Shown here: positions 26,516 to 52,465 of the stretch, one piece after another
How the letters are laid out: every line of letters begins with the position of its first letter
Position numbering within the stretch: position 1 is the stretch's first letter
Sequence record: OM313461
Direction: 5' to 3' (one strand)
DNA: 52,936 nt
From: Escherichia phage vB_EcoM_PiR
Made by a program: the position numbers and the translations under genes
The notes under the pieces: model-generated
What the model was told of the DNA's origin: nothing
What the model saw: the letters and a program-made list of their open reading frames with translations, nothing else
Databases searched by the model: none

Positions 26516-28483
26516 TTAGTGTGCCTCTGCCCAGTTACTTTCTATCTTAGCATCAGTAAGAACAGGTACACGAAGCGGTAGTACAGTTTCCATGACCCGT
26601 ACGAAATCATAGAACCCATCTTCTGCTTGCTTACCAGACGGTAGAGAGAAGTTAAGCTCATCGTGTACAGTCAGGCGAGGTACGCCAATCACGTCAAAGT
26701 AACCGTCTTCATACCCTTTCAGCATTGCAGACTTCATCTGGTCTGCTGACGACCCTTGCAGCACTCGGTTGATTGCCTTGTGGGTGTCTGCCAGTTTAAT
26801 GTTCGGGCCATACTCCTGACGTGCTTCTTCAAATGGCAAAGGCATCTTCCCGAATCCACCACGCTTTGGTACCCACTTATTGAACCACGTCTTCCGGCCC
26901 ATAAAGGTTTCTACGTACCCCTGGCTATAACATAAATCTTCATAATGCTTCATGGTAGCACCAATGAATGGTGCGCCCTGATGGTACGCCTTCAGAACAG
27001 GTTCTGCTTCTTCAGGCGTCATTGCTAACTTACGGGCAAGAGCATTAAGCATCATGCCATATAGCAAACCAAAGTTGATGGTCTTGGCTGGTTTACGCTC
27101 TATAACGTGACCTGAGGCTTCCTTGATAATATCGACCATAACATTGTGGTAATCTGCTTCCGGGTTAGCCGCGAAAATTGCTCGTAACTCATCAGCGCCC
27201 GGGCCGACTGCAAAATGCGCCATGAATCGATATTCAATTTGGGCGTAGTCTGCTGATCCCCATCTGTGTCCGACATCCGGTACGAAACAAGCACGAAGGA
27301 GTGGTCCCAGTATTTTGTGTCGAGACGGTATATTCTGCAGATTAGGGTCAGATGAGCTAAACCGACCACTAACGGTTCCACCGTCATCACCGCGCATTTG
27401 ATGGAATTGACCGTGAAGGAAGCCATTTGTATTCATCCCCAATATATAGCCACGAATAAACGTGGACTGGATTTTTTCATAAGACTTAATCTCAGACACC
27501 AGTTCCGCAAACGGATGGTGCAAGCCTGCTAAGAAGTCTGCCGTAAACGACGGATTACCCGCCGCTGTTTTGAAGTACTCCAGACCTAAATGGTCAAATG
27601 CAAGAGCTAAGTCCGGACCTGAGTTAACGTTAATGTTAAAGCCAATCTGGTCTTTAATCTGCTGGTGCATTTTCCTTATTTCAGCGCTAAGCGTATCATC
27701 CGCCTCTTTGGCTTTATCAAGGTCAACACGCACACCTGCAAAACGCATCTTAAGCATTAATGGAATAAGCTTGCACTCCATATAGAATACATCTGTTAAA
27801 CACCAGCGACTTAACAAAGGCCACTGGGCTTTGATAATGTGTATTGGTAAGTCGGCGTCAGATTCAGCATAGTAACCCACAAGACGAGGAGGCGTTTTGT
27901 AGATGTACTTTCTGGCTTCACCTGTTGGCTTACAGCCATAAGCATCTGAAATCCATTGGTACATCTCGGCTGAGTCTTTACCTTCGCCTACATACTTTCG
28001 TCCAAGTCCTTCAAGTGCAACACGCGCGCCTGGGTCAAGTAATGCTTCCGCGAATTGTACATCCATGCACAATCCTTTAACTTCCACGCCTTCTGCTGCA
28101 AGCCAGCCCAAGTCATATGTGATGTTAGCACCGACTTTAACTTGGTTAGGTCGCGAGAGTTCGAGCCGAAGCCAACCAAGTACTTCCTCAGCTGGAAGGT
28201 TATCCTCTTCGCCGAGCTCGTGTCTGATTGGGTAGTAAGCTTTGAAGCCGTTGTCCGTAGCGATACTAACTCCAACGATATGACCCTCCCTCCTGGCCCA
28301 ACCACTACCATTTGTATCCATCCCTGGGTCGTATGTTTCACAGTCAAGACCGATAATCTTTGCAGAAGACAAATCCGGGTAATGCGCGCGCGGCCGCCAT
28401 CCAGTATCCCTGACGTATGGTATAGGACGGTTGATAGGTTTAACATTCTTTGCACCTTCGAAGCTATCGAATAAAAAGCTCAT
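26516..28483 (-). CDS. DNA polymerase, family A, with 3'-5' exonuclease domain
   Basis: exo motif LDCET; pol motifs DYAQIEYR (A), KTINFGLLYG (B), VHDE (C); GAGGGGA SD. Confidence 0.9.
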   Translation of the reverse strand: MSFLFDSFEGAKNVKPINRPIPYVRDTGWRPRAHYPDLSSAKIIGLDCETYDPGMDTNGSGWARREGHIVGVSIATDNGFKAYYPIRHELGEEDNLPAEEVLGWLRLELSRPNQVKVGANITYDLGWLAAEGVEVKGLCMDVQFAEALLDPGARVALEGLGRKYVGEGKDSAEMYQWISDAYGCKPTGEARKYIYKTPPRLVGYYAESDADLPIHIIKAQWPLLSRWCLTDVFYMECKLIPLMLKMRFAGVRVDLDKAKEADDTLSAEIRKMHQQIKDQIGFNINVNSGPDLALAFDHLGLEYFKTAAGNPSFTADFLAGLHHPFAELVSEIKSYEKIQSTFIRGYILGMNTNGFLHGQFHQMRGDDGGTVSGRFSSSDPNLQNIPSRHKILGPLLRACFVPDVGHRWGSADYAQIEYRFMAHFAVGPGADELRAIFAANPEADYHNVMVDIIKEASGHVIERKPAKTINFGLLYGMMLNALARKLAMTPEEAEPVLKAYHQGAPFIGATMKHYEDLCYSQGYVETFMGRKTWFNKWVPKRGGFGKMPLPFEEARQEYGPNIKLADTHKAINRVLQGSSADQMKSAMLKGYEDGYFDVIGVPRLTVHDELNFSLPSGKQAEDGFYDFVRVMETVLPLRVPVLTDAKIESNWAEAH

Positions 28484-29508: not shown

Positions 29509-30393
29509 TTATACGGCCATTTGTAGTTTGATGTTTGGCATTGGTTTGTACTTCTCAACCATTGGCGTAACATCGGCAGGAGTGAAGTCAAACACTGACA
29601 CGTCGTAAATTGCGTTAATGTCAGGACGACCTTCAAAGTTAGTGTCCAGTGTAGTATCAGAATTGCTTACGATACGTTGCAGGAAAATCTTTGCAGCATC
29701 GATATGATTCTGATAGATGTGATAGTCACCCAGCGTAACAGTCATATCACCTACCCCAGTACCCAGCTCAGCAGCAATGGTAATCTGCAGCATTTGATGC
29801 AACAGAATATCGTGAGGCAGACCCAGAATAACATCCGCGCTACGCATGTGGAACATCAGCTCTAATTCATTGCGGTTGTTAATGAACAGCTGAAAACCAT
29901 GGTAACAAGGCGGAAGGGCCATGGCGTCCATCTCTTGTGGGTTCCATGCCGTAATGTATGCCCGGCGGTCAGTAGGCTTAACCTTCAGCGTTTCAATAAC
30001 ATCTTTAAGCTGGTTAGTAAGAACACCATTCTTGTAGAATGGCTTAATCCATTGCACGCCGTACACAGGACCTAAGTCACGGTTGTCTGGCGTACCCCAG
30101 CGTTTGTTTGCGTCCTGCAGGTTACCTTCCCACCAGTTGCAGCCAAAGCCTTTGAGCGTGTCGACGTTTGAAATACCGTTGATAAAGCAGTAAAGCTCAG
30201 CAGCAACAGCTTTGATGTTAACAGGTTTAAACACCGGCACCATCAGTTTGTTGTCGTTAAAAGCCAGCTTAAATGCTGTACCAAAACAACGGCGTGTACC
30301 AACACCTGTACGGTCTACAACATCCTCGCCTTTACGCAGGATAAAAGAAATGATGTCGCTGTAAAGAGAATCGACAGTGCTATATGTTTTCAT
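29509..30393 (-). CDS. thymidylate-synthase-fold enzyme, predicted dCMP-specific (dCMP hydroxymethylase or methylase)
   Basis: aligns to ThyA: DRTGxGT, DLGPVYG, catalytic Cys in ALPPCYHGFQ, RSxD, GDYHIYQNH; specificity Asn replaced by Asp in GLPHD. Confidence 0.8.
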   Translation of the reverse strand: MKTYSTVDSLYSDIISFILRKGEDVVDRTGVGTRRCFGTAFKLAFNDNKLMVPVFKPVNIKAVAAELYCFINGISNVDTLKGFGCNWWEGNLQDANKRWGTPDNRDLGPVYGVQWIKPFYKNGVLTNQLKDVIETLKVKPTDRRAYITAWNPQEMDAMALPPCYHGFQLFINNRNELELMFHMRSADVILGLPHDILLHQMLQITIAAELGTGVGDMTVTLGDYHIYQNHIDAAKIFLQRIVSNSDTTLDTNFEGRPDINAIYDVSVFDFTPADVTPMVEKYKPMPNIKLQMAV

Positions 30394-30986
30394 TAAAACA
30401 GTTCCTTTTGAGCCGGGTTAACGTGTGCGTCGATGATGGCCTGGATGTCAGGTGCTTTCCATCCTTCAGGCTTAACAATATCCTGACCAGACTTATGCTT
30501 ACTGTTGCTTGCATCAGGCTTAGCACGTTCTTTCGCCATGTTAGCAACTTGTACCGCATCCCATGCTGCGTCGAGTGGCCAGTTGTTGTTTGCACACCAG
30601 GTAATCAGGTGGATAATTAACTGGGCCAGACGGTCGCAATGAGTGTCTTCAGTATCCTTAACGTATACAATAAGGCCGTCAGCATCGAAGCGGTCCATAA
30701 ATCCGCATGGCGTAGTTAACAGAATCGGATACTCAAATTCGTTGGTGAACCATGCAGTCTGGTCATACAGATATAACGTACCTGCAGCAATGTAAATTAA
30801 ATCTACAATACCGTCTAAGAATCCAGCTTTATCGCCGTCCTTCTTAGCTTGTTTAATTTCTTCCATCTCCTCAATAAGACGGTCATAGCGAAGCTTGAAC
30901 TCAGGTTTACCGCCTTGACTAACAGGCTTGAGGTCAAACTTCTCATGAAAAGCGGTAACGCCTGCAGCAATTTTACTGAATCGCAT
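30393..30986 (-). CDS. MazG-like nucleoside triphosphate pyrophosphohydrolase (probable)
   Basis: EEMEEI ... DGIVDLIYIA acidic helix motifs typical of all-alpha NTP pyrophosphatases; TAATG overlap with TS-like gene. Confidence 0.5.
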   Translation of the reverse strand: MRFSKIAAGVTAFHEKFDLKPVSQGGKPEFKLRYDRLIEEMEEIKQAKKDGDKAGFLDGIVDLIYIAAGTLYLYDQTAWFTNEFEYPILLTTPCGFMDRFDADGLIVYVKDTEDTHCDRLAQLIIHLITWCANNNWPLDAAWDAVQVANMAKERAKPDASNSKHKSGQDIVKPEGWKAPDIQAIIDAHVNPAQKELF

Positions 30987-34558: not shown

Positions 34559-35437
34559 TTATTTTAAGGAAAGTTTAACGGGCTTCTCATCCTGTGGGAA
34601 GACATCAGCAGGGCGATACTCATCGCAAGCCGCTAATTGCTCTTCGATTGTTTCGAGTTCTTTCTGGTGCTTGTTGCAGTACCACACTTTGCCCTGAAGC
34701 GGTTTACTGTAATGGCAGGTTCTGCAGTTCCTGTCTGGCATTGCTCCTTTGTGGCACAAGTGATGGTATTCGCACATCCCTGGTTTGCACTCCCACCAAA
34801 TAGGCGATTCAGAAATCTTCGGCATATCCAAACCAGATTCCGCATATACAACAGCCTCCGCTTTACTCAGTTGTATGTCGCTTTCCAGTAAGTCAATCTC
34901 GACCACTTCAAAATACATCTCGTCAGTGTTCTTGTTGATTGCAATATACACAGCTTGATTCAGCTTAAGCTTCCGCATGTACACCTGCATCTGGGCGTAG
35001 TGTACCGGCTTACTTGCTTTAACAGACTTGAGCTTGACTAACTCTTTAAACGACTTATCGCCATGCGTCTTGAATTCAGCAAGTGCCCATACGCCTTTGT
35101 ATTTAATTACACAGTCACAAGACCCAGAGAAGATGTCATTGAAGTCGTGTATGCGCCATTGCTTACCAGTCTTGGGATTGACGTCCAGCACTTCGTCACA
35201 TACGGAACGAAGCCACTTTACAATTCTGCTTTCTTCAAGGTTACCACGTTCAAACAGACGAAGTTGCTTAGCTGTAAACTTCTCCTTGAACGACCAGTGC
35301 AGAACGTGCCAAAGATAGCGATAGCAGTTGTGTCCTATCTGCGATGCTCCAAGATGCCCGCGTCGTTCTTCTCTTTCATGGGCTTCGACTATCTTGATGT
35401 CAATACGTTTCTGCAGGTCGTTAAACGGACTGGGCAT
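34559..35437 (-). CDS. Cas4/RecB-like PD-(D/E)xK nuclease with C-terminal Cys cluster
   Basis: D...EFK nuclease-like motif and CKPGMCEYHHLC Cys cluster; start re-assigned to ATG 35437 with GAGGAG SD. Confidence 0.55.
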   Translation of the reverse strand: MPSPFNDLQKRIDIKIVEAHEREERRGHLGASQIGHNCYRYLWHVLHWSFKEKFTAKQLRLFERGNLEESRIVKWLRSVCDEVLDVNPKTGKQWRIHDFNDIFSGSCDCVIKYKGVWALAEFKTHGDKSFKELVKLKSVKASKPVHYAQMQVYMRKLKLNQAVYIAINKNTDEMYFEVVEIDLLESDIQLSKAEAVVYAESGLDMPKISESPIWWECKPGMCEYHHLCHKGAMPDRNCRTCHYSKPLQGKVWYCNKHQKELETIEEQLAACDEYRPADVFPQDEKPVKLSLK

Positions 35438-35906
35438 TGTTAAACTCCTCAACGCTGAATTCATCATACACAATATTATGTGCCCACAAATGGGCGACGG
35501 CATTTGCCATGCTGTCCTTCCATTTGGATTGAGAAGCTGTGTGTGCCAATGCAACTACCCGAACCAGGTTAAGGTTGGCTATCAGCATATCTGCACAATG
35601 TTCGCACGGCGGGTAGGTTATGTAGATGGTAACCGGGCCTAATGAAGGAGTGTCTAACTCACTCCTTATATTAGCTAAGGTATTTATCTCGCTATGAATA
35701 GTTAGAGCGTTCTTGAGGCTATTAGGCACTATTCTTATAGAGTCTAGCTGCGTAGGTAAGCCGTTATATCCAGTGGAAATAATACGCTTGTTCTGGTCCA
35801 CAAGAACACTACCGACTTGACGTTTCGGGTCCTTTGACCAGCTTGCAACTTCACAAGCTATGCGCATAAACCGCTTGTCCCACTTGTCCATCTTCTTCTT
35901 TTGCAT
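35421..35906 (-). CDS. dCMP deaminase
   Basis: zinc-binding motifs HSEINTL (H-x-E) and PPCEHCADM (PCxxC). Confidence 0.85.
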   Translation of the reverse strand: MQKKKMDKWDKRFMRIACEVASWSKDPKRQVGSVLVDQNKRIISTGYNGLPTQLDSIRIVPNSLKNALTIHSEINTLANIRSELDTPSLGPVTIYITYPPCEHCADMLIANLNLVRVVALAHTASQSKWKDSMANAVAHLWAHNIVYDEFSVEEFNNAQSV

Positions 35907-49307: not shown

Positions 49308-49805
49308 ATGGGTAACATTATGAAAATTGTTCAATTAGAGCCATATCCGCCTCAATTGGCTATCGTTTGCAGCGAAAAAGAGCACCAGGAGCTCCAAAAG
49401 CTGATGGATTTGCCTGATTTTGGCAACTGGAATGACCGGGAAACGCGTAATGCGTCTACTTTTACGTTCACTCGCGTTAACTATCCGTACCTGTTAATCG
49501 TCGTCGAACTGTACCACCCGGACGACCTGAAGTACAACACCATTTCCCACGAAGGCATTCACGTAATGTCGTCGCTGATGAACTATGTAGGGCTTAAATA
49601 CGACCCAGAAAACGATGAATGGTACGCATATCAGCACGATTTCATCGTAAATGCCATTTGTAAGGCCCATGATGAGTACCTGGAGCGCAAAAAAGCGCCA
49701 AAACATAAGCCAAAAATCGAAACAGGCAATCATCCTGTGATACTGCCACAAGACGTTATGAACTCGCTTTTGACTGACACTACTGGGGACTTTTTAGGTG
49801 ATTGA
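49308..49805 (+). CDS. HExxH-motif protein (putative metallopeptidase-like)
   Basis: 165 aa containing SHEGIHV. Confidence 0.45.
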   Translation: MGNIMKIVQLEPYPPQLAIVCSEKEHQELQKLMDLPDFGNWNDRETRNASTFTFTRVNYPYLLIVVELYHPDDLKYNTISHEGIHVMSSLMNYVGLKYDPENDEWYAYQHDFIVNAICKAHDEYLERKKAPKHKPKIETGNHPVILPQDVMNSLLTDTTGDFLGD

Positions 49806-50307
49806 AATACTCCGTAAGTATTTTCGCTATGAGCCAGACACAGGCTTATTGTACAGAATACGACAGGCTAAAACAGGTAAACGAGTCGATATGAGCCAGC
49901 CTGTAGGCACGGAACATAGCGGTTATCTGTTTTGCAGTGTACCAGAAGGCATTCGTACAAAGCCTGTGCACGTAATCTGCTATGCTTTACAAACTGGCGA
50001 ACTACCTGAAGTAGTTGACCATAAAGATGGTAACGGGCTTAACAACAAATGGTACAACCTTCGTAACGGTACTCAAACGCAGAACCGGTATAACTCAAAA
50101 GTCAAATCAAGTAACACAACAGGCGTAAAAGGCTTGTTTGAGTACGCACCAAAAGGTCGTAAACCTCTTTGGAAAGCCAGCATTAAAGTAGATGGAGTCA
50201 ATCATCAGAAGTATTTCCCTTATACTGATAACGGTAGGCTGGAAGCTATTGAGTGGCTTGACGAACAAAGACATCAACATGGCGAATTCGCCAACAAAGG
50301 AAATTAA
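49798..50307 (+). CDS. HNH homing endonuclease with AP2-like DNA-binding domain
   Basis: VDHKDGNGLNNKWYNLR...TQTQNRYN HNH motif; C-terminal AP2-like region; GTG start with weak RBS. Confidence 0.7.
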   Translation: MIEILRKYFRYEPDTGLLYRIRQAKTGKRVDMSQPVGTEHSGYLFCSVPEGIRTKPVHVICYALQTGELPEVVDHKDGNGLNNKWYNLRNGTQTQNRYNSKVKSSNTTGVKGLFEYAPKGRKPLWKASIKVDGVNHQKYFPYTDNGRLEAIEWLDEQRHQHGEFANKGN

Positions 50308-50308
50308 T

Positions 50309-50983
50309 ATGATAAACCTAATCTTTGCAATGGGCCAAAATGGGGAATTCGGGTTGTCCCCGGAGTTTATGAAGCATCAGGTGGACTCGTGTAAGACTAT
50401 GGAAGAGGTCCGTGCGCTTCCTAAGTCTGGTTTACCATGGAAGTGTCCGTCAGATATGCTCTTTTTCAGGACTATGACTAATTCAATTGCGTCAGAACCA
50501 GGCTATAATGCGTATCAGCAACTACGGGGACAGTTCCCAAGTGACCAGTTGCGAAACATGATAGCTGATGTAACGGTAAAAATGGTTGGGCATAGCGTAT
50601 TGTTAGCCGGTCGTAAAACGTTTATGACTATGAGTCTGCCTATGTCAGCCCACCGAATACTGCTGCCGGTATCTCGTCAGATTATGGCTTCAGAAGGCTA
50701 CAACAATATAGGTGAGTTGGCAGCAGCACTTGAAGACCGTGGTTCAGATGTTTGGATTGTTGGCGGTGCACAGTTAATACTTGCGGCTCTTGAAGAGCAT
50801 GCCAAAGGTACACTCCGTGTTGACAACATGTTTATCAGCACAATCAAAGAAGCAGGTCCAAGTGATATATTAATGGACCGTAGCAAATTAATGATGTACA
50901 TTGATAGCGACTTCACTTATAATGATGAATATGTTGATAACAAATCTGTGCTGATACAGCGTTACCGGAGTGTACAGCAATGA
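50309..50983 (+). CDS. dihydrofolate reductase (with internal insertion)
   Basis: start ATG 50309 (AAGGA SD); DHFR-like motifs MINLIFAMGQNGEFG, LPW, VGHSVLLAGRKTF, VWIVGGAQL. Confidence 0.65.
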   Translation: MINLIFAMGQNGEFGLSPEFMKHQVDSCKTMEEVRALPKSGLPWKCPSDMLFFRTMTNSIASEPGYNAYQQLRGQFPSDQLRNMIADVTVKMVGHSVLLAGRKTFMTMSLPMSAHRILLPVSRQIMASEGYNNIGELAAALEDRGSDVWIVGGAQLILAALEEHAKGTLRVDNMFISTIKEAGPSDILMDRSKLMMYIDSDFTYNDEYVDNKSVLIQRYRSVQQ

Positions 50984-51486
50984 ATATCATAGTTGAGGGA
51001 CCTGACAATGCTCGTAAATCTACACTTATTAAGTTCCTTGAACCTCATCTTGGCCGCAGCATTATTCATAATACTGTTGACAAAGATGCCGAATCGGTCA
51101 TGGCTAAACAGGCCAAAGAAAACGCGCTCGAAGGCAATAGTATTTACGACCGTAGCGCTGTTATATCTGAGTATATCTATTGCATGGTTCTTCAACGTAC
51201 GCCTGTCATCAATATTAATGTATCACATGTAGCAGATATGTGTGACAACGCCATCGTTATCTTTTGTATGCCGCCTATTGAAAAGGTACTGGCGACTACA
51301 AAAGAAGAGATGCCTGGTGTTGTGGAAAATCTTGAGGCGTTATACAACCAGTATGACAACCTCATTGACGAACTGGTTATGATGGGCAAGCAGTTCTTTA
51401 TTTACGACTGGACTGCTGAAGAAAATGGCCCAGAAGCAGTTCTCGAATACATCAACGAACGTATTAATAAGGAGTGGAACAAATGA
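50980..51486 (+). CDS. P-loop-like nucleotide kinase with degenerate Walker A (possible dNMP kinase)
   Basis: IVEGPDNARKSTL resembles thymidylate-kinase P-loop but second Gly replaced by Arg; ATGA overlap with DHFR stop. Confidence 0.35.
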   Translation: MNIIVEGPDNARKSTLIKFLEPHLGRSIIHNTVDKDAESVMAKQAKENALEGNSIYDRSAVISEYIYCMVLQRTPVININVSHVADMCDNAIVIFCMPPIEKVLATTKEEMPGVVENLEALYNQYDNLIDELVMMGKQFFIYDWTAEENGPEAVLEYINERINKEWNK

Positions 51487-52175
51487 GCCCAGTATACAAT
51501 ACCTCAGTCACGCTGTCAGCAACCGTAGGGGACGTCAACAAGACTGTTACTGTGGGTTCAACTAACCCGAACCTGTCAGGCGAAGACCTGCTACGCCTGG
51601 CCAAACGTGCTCTTGAAGATAACGAAGTGACTGGTACTGAAGGCGTTAACATTGAAATTAACGTCGAAGGGTGTCCACACAGCATCAGCATTGCGACTTC
51701 TGGCGATGAAATTGAAAAGTTCAACGACGAGCTGGAATATCGTACCGGTGAGATGTTCAGCAGTGCGCTAAACTGGTACTTGTGCAAGGCTTCAAACTAC
51801 GCTGGCGCTCCTATGTCAGACCGTATGTTAGCTGATATGTCTGCACGTGAAATTGCTAAAGGCTGGGCGCATGTACAGATGCTGCAGGAGCATATCTGCA
51901 AGCTGGAAAGCTGCAATAAAGACGCGTCTGAGCTTATTACTGCCTATAAGCGACAGATTAACGACCTGCAGCAACTGATGGGCAAACGCGCTGAAGAATA
52001 TGAGGCTGAGATTCGTAGTCTTAACGGTACGGCTGTTGCTAACAACCGTGCTTTCAGCGAAGAGCGTAAAGCGCTTATTGCCCAGCGTGACGCTGAAAAA
52101 CGTCGTGCAGACGACCTAGCAAACCGTCTTAATTTTATCCGTAAACACATGGAACACATGGATGGAGTAATCTGA
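51483..52175 (+). CDS. hypothetical protein with C-terminal coiled coil
   Basis: ATG 51483 with AAGGAG SD; track start 51474 is GTG. Confidence 0.5.
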   Translation: MSPVYNTSVTLSATVGDVNKTVTVGSTNPNLSGEDLLRLAKRALEDNEVTGTEGVNIEINVEGCPHSISIATSGDEIEKFNDELEYRTGEMFSSALNWYLCKASNYAGAPMSDRMLADMSAREIAKGWAHVQMLQEHICKLESCNKDASELITAYKRQINDLQQLMGKRAEEYEAEIRSLNGTAVANNRAFSEERKALIAQRDAEKRRADDLANRLNFIRKHMEHMDGVI

Positions 52176-52465
52176 TGGACTTGTTCGATATGGTCGAACA
52201 TCCTGAAGTAAACGGCTTGGCGGAAGCTAAGCCATTTAACTGGGATGAATTCGTAGCAGGCAAACCTGCTGTAACCCACAATGGGCAGATTGCATATTAC
52301 GGAGGCCATAGCGAACATCCGATGTGCACTCACCTGTACAACGCTATCACAACCATAGCCGACGAAAACGTTATTAAATACGGAAAAGATGTAATGCCTT
52401 TTCTTGTAGATGAGCGCGGTTACTTCGAAGGTAAATGGTTCCCGTTTCTGGTAGAAATGGCCTAA
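52175..52465 (+). CDS. hypothetical protein
   Basis: ATGA overlap with upstream stop. Confidence 0.5.
   Translation: MDLFDMVEHPEVNGLAEAKPFNWDEFVAGKPAVTHNGQIAYYGGHSEHPMCTHLYNAITTIADENVIKYGKDVMPFLVDERGYFEGKWFPFLVEMA

Follow-up and report, generated by a model that had tools for sequence, protein, structure and literature searches.

The DHFR-Kinase Gene Pair

Escherichia phage vB_EcoM_PiR (PiR; OM313461) encodes a small P-loop kinase directly behind a gene resembling dihydrofolate reductase (DHFR). The window, meaning the whole 52,936-nucleotide (nt) stretch of PiR, is a complete Rosemountvirus genome, and all coordinates are numbered along it. It is colinear with the genome of Escherichia phage JEP7 (MT764207.1), with the same length and gene coordinates. 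The kinase carries an arginine, Arg12, where its family has the glycine that precedes the P-loop lysine. The interpretation favored here is that the enzyme phosphorylates a C5-modified deoxycytidine monophosphate (dCMP) in a pathway for cytosine replacement. The genes and signals of the locus are:

50980–51486, plus strand: kinase-family open reading frame (ORF), 168 amino acids, equivalent of JEP7_69, N-terminus MNIIVEGPDNARKSTL
50309–50983, plus strand: divergent DHFR-like gene, 224 amino acids (Pfam DHFR_1, 33.6 bits against a cutoff of 25; phrog_316, 8e-27)
50980–50983, plus strand: ATGA in the sequence, overlap of the kinase start (ATG, 50980–50982) and the DHFR stop (TGA, 50981–50983)
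50967–50970, plus strand: GGAG in the sequence, Shine-Dalgarno-like, 9 nt 5' of the kinase ATG and within the DHFR gene
51483–51486, plus strand: ATGA in the sequence, where the stop codon of the kinase overlaps the ATG of the gene that follows (phrog_37540)

A preliminary description, made from the sequence alone, had proposed the ORF, the overlap of its ATG with the DHFR stop, and the upstream DHFR. The sequence bears out the first two, and the Pfam and PHROG matches the third; the overlap at the 3' end of the kinase gene was absent from that description. The same DHFR-kinase overlap is annotated in phages ZCSE2, SE4, AEV23, KE26, S144, S1, and PK3, and the annotators of S144 marked a ribosome-binding site at the equivalent place. 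The kinase ORF is a genuine gene and not a chance reading frame, because it is conserved in ~60 related phage genomes, belongs to a family of 3,375 representatives, and has a ratio of nonsynonymous to synonymous substitution rates (dN/dS) of 0.04–0.38.

Fold and Family of the Kinase

Four motifs of the protein are conserved:

50995–51024, plus strand: Walker A motif (P-loop), E6-G-P-D-N-A-R-K-S-T15 in the sequence; the family motif is EG[PM]DN[ST]GK[ST]T (149 representatives)
51148–51153, plus strand: Asp57-Arg58, the "DR" motif after strand 3, invariant in a 70-sequence family alignment (22–90% identity)
51265–51273, plus strand: Cys96-x-Pro98, at the end of strand 4, invariant in the family alignment
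51301–51330, plus strand: LID-like segment K108-E-E-M-P-G-V-V-E-N117, from the close-relative and family alignments

Among close relatives, residues E6, G7, D9, N10, K13, and S14 of the P-loop and K108, E110, M111, G113, V114, E116, and N117 of the LID-like segment are invariant. Across the 70-sequence alignment, G7, D9, K13, D57, R58, C96, P98, and Y125 never vary, and the consensus reads EGPDNSGKST ... DR..ISE.VYG ... YCRPP ... R.QM.GV.EN ... YD. Residues D57-R58 lie at the end of the strand formed by residues 54–57 and correspond to the DR(Y/H/F) motif of thymidylate kinases; we take them to be the counterpart of the DRY/DRH motif that binds the acceptor phosphate in those enzymes.

The AlphaFold2 model (21 homologues) has a mean predicted local distance difference test score (pLDDT) of 88.6 and a predicted template modeling score of 0.86. 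Strands and helices alternate as in a P-loop nucleotide kinase, and the fold is of the nucleoside monophosphate (NMP)-kinase/thymidylate-kinase type. The LID-like segment has the lowest pLDDT of the model (74), as expected of a mobile lid. The best structural matches are small-molecule nucleotide and nucleoside kinases, not Pnk or Clp1, and a fold search of BFVD adds only uncharacterized proteins labeled "thymidylate kinase". In thymidylate kinases, the residues that bind thymine lie between strands 2 and 3; in the PiR kinase, this segment is much reduced, to one helix of residues 37–47. As modeled, the protein has the layout of a P-loop kinase resembling thymidylate and deoxynucleoside kinases, with a shortened NMP-binding region. 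The thymidylate kinases of PF02223 are ~40 residues longer.

The closest fold is YorR of the Bacillus subtilis SPbeta prophage (PDB 2AXP, 3KB2), which matches over nearly the full length and is similar in size. YorR is also the first profile match among PDB sequences (E 0.0024, residues 3–78), and a fragment of it scores 38 bits against a broader profile of the kinase family, which establishes sequence homology at an identity of ~19%. It is a structural-genomics entry without an assigned activity. T4 gp1, the phage deoxynucleoside monophosphate (dNMP) kinase with which the preliminary description compared the PiR protein, is not among the matches listed in the fold and PDB-profile searches, and similarity to its structures 1DEK and 1DEL was not found there.

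An exhaustive profile search (E ≤ 1e-3) collects 3,375 cluster representatives, mostly of 160–195 amino acids. The family is mostly viral and lacks a Pfam model; PHROG 761 labels it "thymidylate kinase", and its structure resembles that of YorR. The PiR kinase matches phrog_761 (1.3e-23) and phrog_4121 and no other PHROG; both carry the thymidylate kinase label. The Pfam scan gives no match to PF02223 even at E ≤ 1, and NCBIfam no family at E ≤ 0.1. The sole Pfam match is PF01712 (dNK), with 14.4 bits against a cutoff of 27, over the P-loop only (residues 3–36). A P-loop fold with kinase homology is present, in the AlphaFold2 model and in the PHROG 761 match.

The Arg12 Allele

The P-loop substitution and the gene segment that carries it are:

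51013–51015, plus strand: codon 12, CGT (Arg) in PiR, IntR, and eight Loughboroughvirus genomes; GGT (Gly) in the family and in JEP7, KE24, KE26, yarpen, and SE13
50980–51194, plus strand: Loughboroughvirus-like 5' segment with Arg12, a recombination tract delimited by bin-by-bin mismatches

The Walker A motif of PiR reads G7-P-D-N-A-R12-K13-S-T, with arginine replacing the glycine before the lysine. The canonical motif (GxxxxGK[ST] with an acidic residue; EGxDGxGK[ST]T) is matched by the family consensus EGPDNSGKST and not by EGPDNARKST of PiR. By comparison with its relatives, Arg12 is a single-base GGT>CGT variant of a lineage and not a feature of the family. The "degenerate P-loop" of the preliminary description is thus accurate for PiR and does not extend to the protein family, in which glycine stands at this place in 149 of 149 representatives (the best 149 of 3,375).

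Codon 12 is GGT in KE24, KE26, yarpen, SE13, and the GenBank record of JEP7 (MT764207.1), which encodes GPDNAGKST. It is CGT in all eight Loughboroughvirus genomes of the collection, from several countries (ZCSE2, S144, S1, PK3, SE4, AEV23, SA173, and ES2-BCU-3), in Rosemountvirus vB_EcoM_IntR (IntR), and in two metagenomic/NCBI clusters, P0001 and P0010. A sequencing or assembly error might be suspected from the unusual pattern of differences between PiR and the Gly12-bearing JEP7, which amount to 1,549 substitutions (2.9%) with no insertions or deletions, patchily distributed at 0–80 per kb. These differences resemble those of a separate isolate or of a consensus assembled on a reference. 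The probability of such an error is negligible: the CGT codon lies in an 81-nt context that is 100% identical in nine independently sequenced phage genomes (11 database records) and in P0001 and P0010, which rules it out.

The kinase region of PiR is 98–99% identical to IntR and ~95% to JEP7. Over nt 1–210 of the kinase gene there are 3 mismatches to AEV23 and 27 to JEP7; over nt 211–450 there are ~88 to AEV23 and ~8 to yarpen. The gene is a mosaic, Loughboroughvirus-like from nt 1 to ~215 and Rosemountvirus-like in the remainder, and the Arg-bearing 5' part has therefore crossed between genera by recombination. Arg12, fixed in Loughboroughvirus, was imported into PiR together with the first ~72 codons.

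Selection has acted on the Arg-bearing gene. Pairwise dN/dS is 0.04–0.21 among Arg-bearing Loughboroughvirus genes and 0.09–0.24 among Gly-bearing Rosemountvirus genes. The eight Loughboroughvirus genes segregate 26 synonymous and 11 nonsynonymous changes (neutral expectation, ~79% nonsynonymous; binomial P = 1.2e-10). The PiR-IntR pair has a dN/dS of ~1.3, a value resting on 4 changes only. Residues K13, S14, D57, and R58 and the LID-like segment are intact in every Arg allele. YorR has phenylalanine at the position of Arg12 (GPDCCFKST), and its entry 3KB2 is, by its title, a guanine nucleotide complex. Purifying selection, the intact motifs, and the phenylalanine of YorR all speak for a function of the Arg12 protein that selection has retained, which does not of itself imply catalysis; the variant is probably still functional. 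In type I thymidylate kinases, a P-loop arginine occupies G-x-x-R-x-G-K; in type II, the arginine is in the LID. The type I position corresponds to Asn10 of PiR, with Arg12 two residues on, and by analogy Arg12 might supply a phosphate contact as the type I arginine does. The preliminary description had allowed for an inactive protein or a non-kinase fold. The purifying selection on the Arg-bearing genes makes both unlikely.

Probable Cytosine-Modification Genes of PiR

Genes expected of a cytosine-replacement pathway lie elsewhere in the window:

29509–30393, minus strand: thymidylate-synthase homologue, predicted 5-methyl-dCMP synthase (Pfam 211 bits; alignments with ThyA and Xp12)
30393–30986, minus strand: MazG-like (PRA-PH) nucleotide pyrophosphohydrolase, candidate dCTPase, adjoining the synthase gene (Pfam PRA-PH 30.6 bits; phrog_671)
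35421–35906, minus strand: dCMP-deaminase-family gene (Pfam dCMP_cyt_deam_1, 76 bits)
26516–28483: family-A DNA polymerase (PolA)

The synthase homologue, the only one in PiR, has aspartate at the position of Asn177 of E. coli (RSADVILGLPHD) when aligned with the ThyA proteins of Mycobacterium tuberculosis and E. coli, and retains L143, C146, D169, W80, and Y94. It is annotated as "thymidylate synthase", and residues D177, L143, and D169 are the same in JEP7 and S144. Published work attributes to N177D the change of substrate from deoxyuridine monophosphate (dUMP) to dCMP, finds that a hydrophobic residue 143 accompanies a methyl rather than a hydroxymethyl product, and treats D169N as the mark of 5-hydroxy-dCMP synthases (PMC13326640, PMC8670742, bioRxiv 10.1101/2024.12.05.627091). 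The alignment reproduces the published N177D/L143E/D169N pattern of RB69 gp48. Since the PiR enzyme combines D177 with L143, its predicted product is 5-methyl-dCMP. The synthase of Xp12, experimentally confirmed to make 5-methyl-dCMP, has the same D177/D169 pattern and also shares C146, W80, and Y94.

PiR holds in one genome the Asp177 synthase, dCMP-deaminase-family protein, PRA-PH protein, and PolA of the cassette described in bioRxiv 10.1101/2024.12.05.627091, a gene set reported there for phages that replace cytosine with 5-methylcytosine (5mC). In published 5mC phages, the deaminase converts 5-methyl-dCTP to dTTP. DHFR belongs to the 5mC clusters of Xp12 and PaMx74, which fits methyl transfer because that reaction yields dihydrofolate. 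Every gene of the Xp12/PaMx74 cassette (D177 synthase, deaminase, DHFR, pyrophosphohydrolase, and PolA) is present in PiR, where, unlike in those phages, the genes fall into two groups separated by 21 kb.

Phage S144 has both the Arg12 kinase and the D177 synthase. Its DNA is cut only by SspI and PacI, whose sites contain only A and T, and seven enzymes with GC-containing sites fail; its authors concluded that the cytosines are modified and did not name the responsible genes (PMC7432712). Judged by its genes, the genus of PiR probably replaces cytosine with 5-methylcytosine.

Linkage of the Kinase Family to dCMP-Type Synthases

Scanned with the family alignment, IMG/VR yields 69 kinase loci, each taken with up to 10 kb on either side. 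A synthase homologue is present at 49 of them, typically on the strand of the kinase and ~1.4 kb downstream. All 49 have at least one homologue with Asp177, and none has only the Asn type. Three further loci hold synthase fragments at contig ends. The remaining 17 lack a synthase, and include 3 Rosemountvirus-like loci, whose synthase is known to lie 21 kb off, and 7 with less than 2 kb of downstream DNA. A deaminase-family gene occurs at 47 of the 69 loci and a MazG-like gene at at least 30. A single-protein scan of IMG/VR for close relatives returns only 4 loci, each of which duplicates a GenBank phage.

Cultured phages agree with this linkage. The kinase is paired with a D177 synthase in 7 of 7: six family members from six host genera (Pseudomonas PMBT14, Gordonia GTE2, Serratia Serbin, Clostridium CPD4, Mycobacterium JacoRen57, and Pelagibacter HTVC200P) and the distant relative RB69. 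The usual order is kinase, pyrophosphatase, sometimes a hypothetical gene, synthase, deaminase, and PolA. Each of the 10 long family members examined carries a fused MazG-like or dUTPase_2 pyrophosphatase. The family thus has the genomic partnership of a gp1-type kinase, an Asp177 synthase with a dCTP/dUTP pyrophosphatase, which in PiR is represented by the D177 synthase and the PRA-PH protein.

As a control, the kinase was sought within 10 kb of the 80 synthase-anchored loci most similar to the PiR synthase, of which 47 have Asn177 and 33 Asp177. The family is absent within 10 kb at all 47 Asn177 loci. A true thymidylate kinase would be expected beside true thymidylate synthases at least sometimes, so this absence argues against that function. 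The linkage is one-way: the kinase family implies a dCMP-type synthase, and not the reverse. The succession of DHFR and a kinase was also considered as a universal signature of 5mC phages and rejected, since PaMx74 gp49, just after DHFR, and its Xp12 counterpart have neither a P-loop nor a match to the family profile.

Relation to T4 gp1 and RB69 gp45

T4 gp1 is a phage P-loop kinase for hydroxymethyl-dCMP, dTMP, and dGMP. The PiR protein is likewise a phage-encoded P-loop kinase, and its predicted step would follow a dCMP-modifying synthase homologue and a dCTP pyrophosphatase in cytosine replacement; the likeness does not extend to homology. The preliminary description had suggested a kinase devoted to a modified dNMP, on the model of gp1. 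As to role, this suggestion gains strong comparative support from gene context (49/49 loci, 7/7 cultured phages, and 0/47 Asn177 controls); as to descent, it gains none.

"Nucleotide kinase" genes occur in the clusters for arabinosylation of 5-hydroxycytosine (RB69 gp45, DLP3 gp78, and RL38J1 gp214), and structure searches matched these proteins to YorR or thymidylate kinases (PMC13326640). RB69 gp45 is a distant member of the present family (31 bits over the N-terminal 100 residues; DGPDNAGKTT, LLDR..IS..VYG), and its gene and that of the D177 synthase gp48 share a strand and lie three genes apart. The phages with these clusters also carry a gp1-type kinase, the one used for the pathway by the authors of PMC13326640.

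Proposed Function and Alternatives

The PiR protein is best read as the kinase for a C5-modified dCMP, most likely 5-methyl-dCMP, co-translated with DHFR; it would be a functional analogue of T4 gp1 from a YorR/thymidylate-kinase-like family, with a recombination-borne Arg12 that is under purifying selection and probably compatible with function. We put the probability of this reading at about 0.55. In the proposed pathway, the substrate, order of steps, and activity of the Arg12 form are inferred from sequence and gene context. The MazG-like pyrophosphatase would convert dCTP to dCMP, the D177/L143 synthase homologue would convert dCMP to 5-methyl-dCMP and dihydrofolate, and the co-translated DHFR would regenerate tetrahydrofolate. 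The kinase would then act between the synthase homologue and the host nucleoside-diphosphate kinase, converting 5-methyl-dCMP to 5-methyl-dCDP, and the resulting triphosphate would be used by the phage family-A DNA polymerase.

Several observations weigh against this proposal. The kinase gene is 21 kb from the synthase gene and adjoins only DHFR. The kinase loci are phylogenetically related, so that the counts of linked synthases overstate independence, and position 143 of the partner synthases in IMG/VR is mostly arginine or aspartate (Arg 38, Asp 10, Leu 1), with products that may be hydroxymethyl. No family member lies within 10 kb of the 33 control loci with D177 and L143, and none is found in the sequence examined of the fully 5mC-substituted phages Xp12 and PaMx74; the 5-methyl-dCMP pathway can therefore run without this family. 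For Xp12, a phage-induced 5-methyl-dCMP kinase activity was reportedly described in 1982. As to Arg12, an exchange of glycine for arginine directly before the Walker lysine is normally expected to harm nucleotide binding, and the uniform glycine of the family points the same way. The IMG/VR scan is uninformative on the frequency of arginine, because its pattern required GK; its 69/69 glycines were discarded. The basic residue of the LID-like segment is lysine (K108) and not the arginine of the family consensus, and the modification evidence for S144 comes only from restriction digestion. A literature search found no biochemical characterization of YorR function, of a 5-methyl-dCMP kinase gene, or of Rosemountvirus DNA modification, no mass spectrometry for any Rosemountvirus or Loughboroughvirus, and no enzymatic or genetic test of any member of the kinase family.

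An ordinary thymidylate (dTMP) kinase, which with DHFR and thymidylate synthase would raise the supply of dTTP, is the pathway proposed by the S144 authors (PMC7432712), and it agrees with the labels in PHROG and GenBank, the coupling to DHFR, and a weak PF02223 match (1.2e-4) in one fused family member. It is unlikely, given that the PiR protein itself matches neither PF02223 nor an NCBIfam family, that its strand 2–3 segment is much shorter, and that the sole PiR synthase homologue has Asp177 and is expected to act on dCMP, not dUMP. The family is also tied to dCMP-type and not dUMP-type synthases: Asn177-only synthases are found at 0/49 kinase-anchored loci with a synthase, and the kinase at 0/47 Asn177 synthase-anchored loci. 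About equally improbable is that Arg12 has abolished catalysis and that the protein is kept to scaffold a nucleotide-synthesis complex or to bind nucleotides only, or that the host performs the kinase step. A glycine before the Walker lysine is universal in P-loop NTPases generally, as it is in the 149 best family representatives. The DNA of Xp12 and PaMx74 is fully 5mC although neither phage encodes the family, so host or other kinases can suffice, and the PiR-IntR dN/dS exceeds one, on its 4 changes. Against a dead enzyme stand the purifying selection in the Arg clade (26 versus 11), which demonstrates function rather than catalysis, the intact motifs of all Arg alleles, the fixation of the allele across one genus and its spread into a second, the phenylalanine tolerated at the same site in YorR, and the restriction-resistant DNA of S144, which itself has Arg12.

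The protein might instead act on nucleic acid, as a polynucleotide kinase or as a kinase of base-hydroxymethyl groups in DNA. Homologues in Gordonia phages are annotated "polynucleotide kinase", and many partner synthases lack a hydrophobic residue 143 and may make hydroxymethyl products. P-loop kinases that phosphorylate 5-hydroxymethyldeoxyuridine in DNA are known from hypermodifying phages, as cited in PMC7653180. Such a role is very improbable: the top structural matches are small-molecule kinases and not Pnk or Clp1, the repeated fusions to dNTP pyrophosphatases point to the free-nucleotide pool, the methyl product predicted from L143 of the PiR synthase would offer no hydroxyl for phosphorylation, and Pfam and PHROG scans recognize no hypermodification genes near the PiR kinase. 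The proposal of a modified-dCMP kinase can also be extended, more tentatively, to the family as the missing dedicated kinase of a widespread cytosine-replacement cassette in phages of Proteobacteria, Actinobacteria, Clostridia, and SAR11, with an Arg12 form that is catalytically competent without the Walker A glycine before the lysine. We regard this extension as possible, if rather doubtful.

Phages with 5-methyl-, 5-hydroxymethyl-, and 5-hydroxycytosine are being searched for means of evading restriction and for enzymes of use in biotechnology. The pathways published for them identify the synthase, pyrophosphatase, and deaminase; the monophosphate-kinase step is assigned to "viral and host kinases", with T4 gp1 standing in for it in heterologous assays. 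A family without a Pfam model would escape the Pfam-based association screens used so far. A cognate kinase would complete the cassette, offer a small kinase for producing modified dNTPs, and give a sequence marker for modified-cytosine phages, with cultured examples in GTE2, JacoRen57, Serbin, CPD4, PMBT14, and HTVC200P. The Arg12 allele also amounts to a natural test of the requirement for the Walker A glycine. For Rosemountvirus and Loughboroughvirus phages that are candidates for phage therapy, the results support the view that their DNA is cytosine-modified.

Neighboring Genes and Additional Observations

A homing-endonuclease gene lies just 5' of the DHFR-kinase pair:

49798–50307, plus strand: mobile HNH homing endonuclease (Pfam HNH_3, 38 bits; phrog_99)

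It sits between a phrog_1365 gene and DHFR and is also present in JEP7 and triss. It is missing in IntR and most Rosemountviruses, and query coverage by relatives without it is only 86%. KE24 has an HNH gene between DHFR and the kinase instead (L002, 8484–8999). With HNH genes at differing points around the module, gene conversion driven by a homing endonuclease could plausibly have given the kinase gene its initial 215 nt of Loughboroughvirus type.

In the DHFR-like protein, the Pfam match covers residues 94–189 only. Compared by eye with E. coli DHFR, it has two apparent insertions, ~20 amino acids before the LPW motif and ~35 amino acids after the TMTN segment, and may be a structurally unusual DHFR. 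Two coupled plus-strand genes follow the kinase, at 51483–52175 (phrog_37540, coiled coil in its C-terminal half) and 52175–52465 (phrog_29999); this order is kept in Rosemountvirus and Loughboroughvirus genomes.

Two features recur at the IMG/VR kinase loci. One is a conserved ORF of 250–300 amino acids without a Pfam match, located between pyrophosphatase and synthase in Arg143-synthase cassettes, at 46 of the 69 loci, and with no counterpart in PiR; examples are:

L019, 35091–35879, minus strand
L093, 9246–10139
L094, 6637–7446
L096, 9007–9897
L095, 9215–9964

An hhalign comparison with the synthase profile is weak (probability 11%). It places a cysteine opposite C146 and the motif YRSTE..ADL opposite RSxD..D177, a hint that the ORF may encode a degenerate paralogue of the synthase. 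The other feature is the presence of two synthase homologues near the kinase on some viral contigs, an Asp177 type together with either a canonical Asn177 ThyA or a copy without the catalytic cysteine:

L042, 11891–12607
L059, 11961–12860
L072, 4717–5565

Phages of this kind may make both thymidylate and a modified cytidylate.

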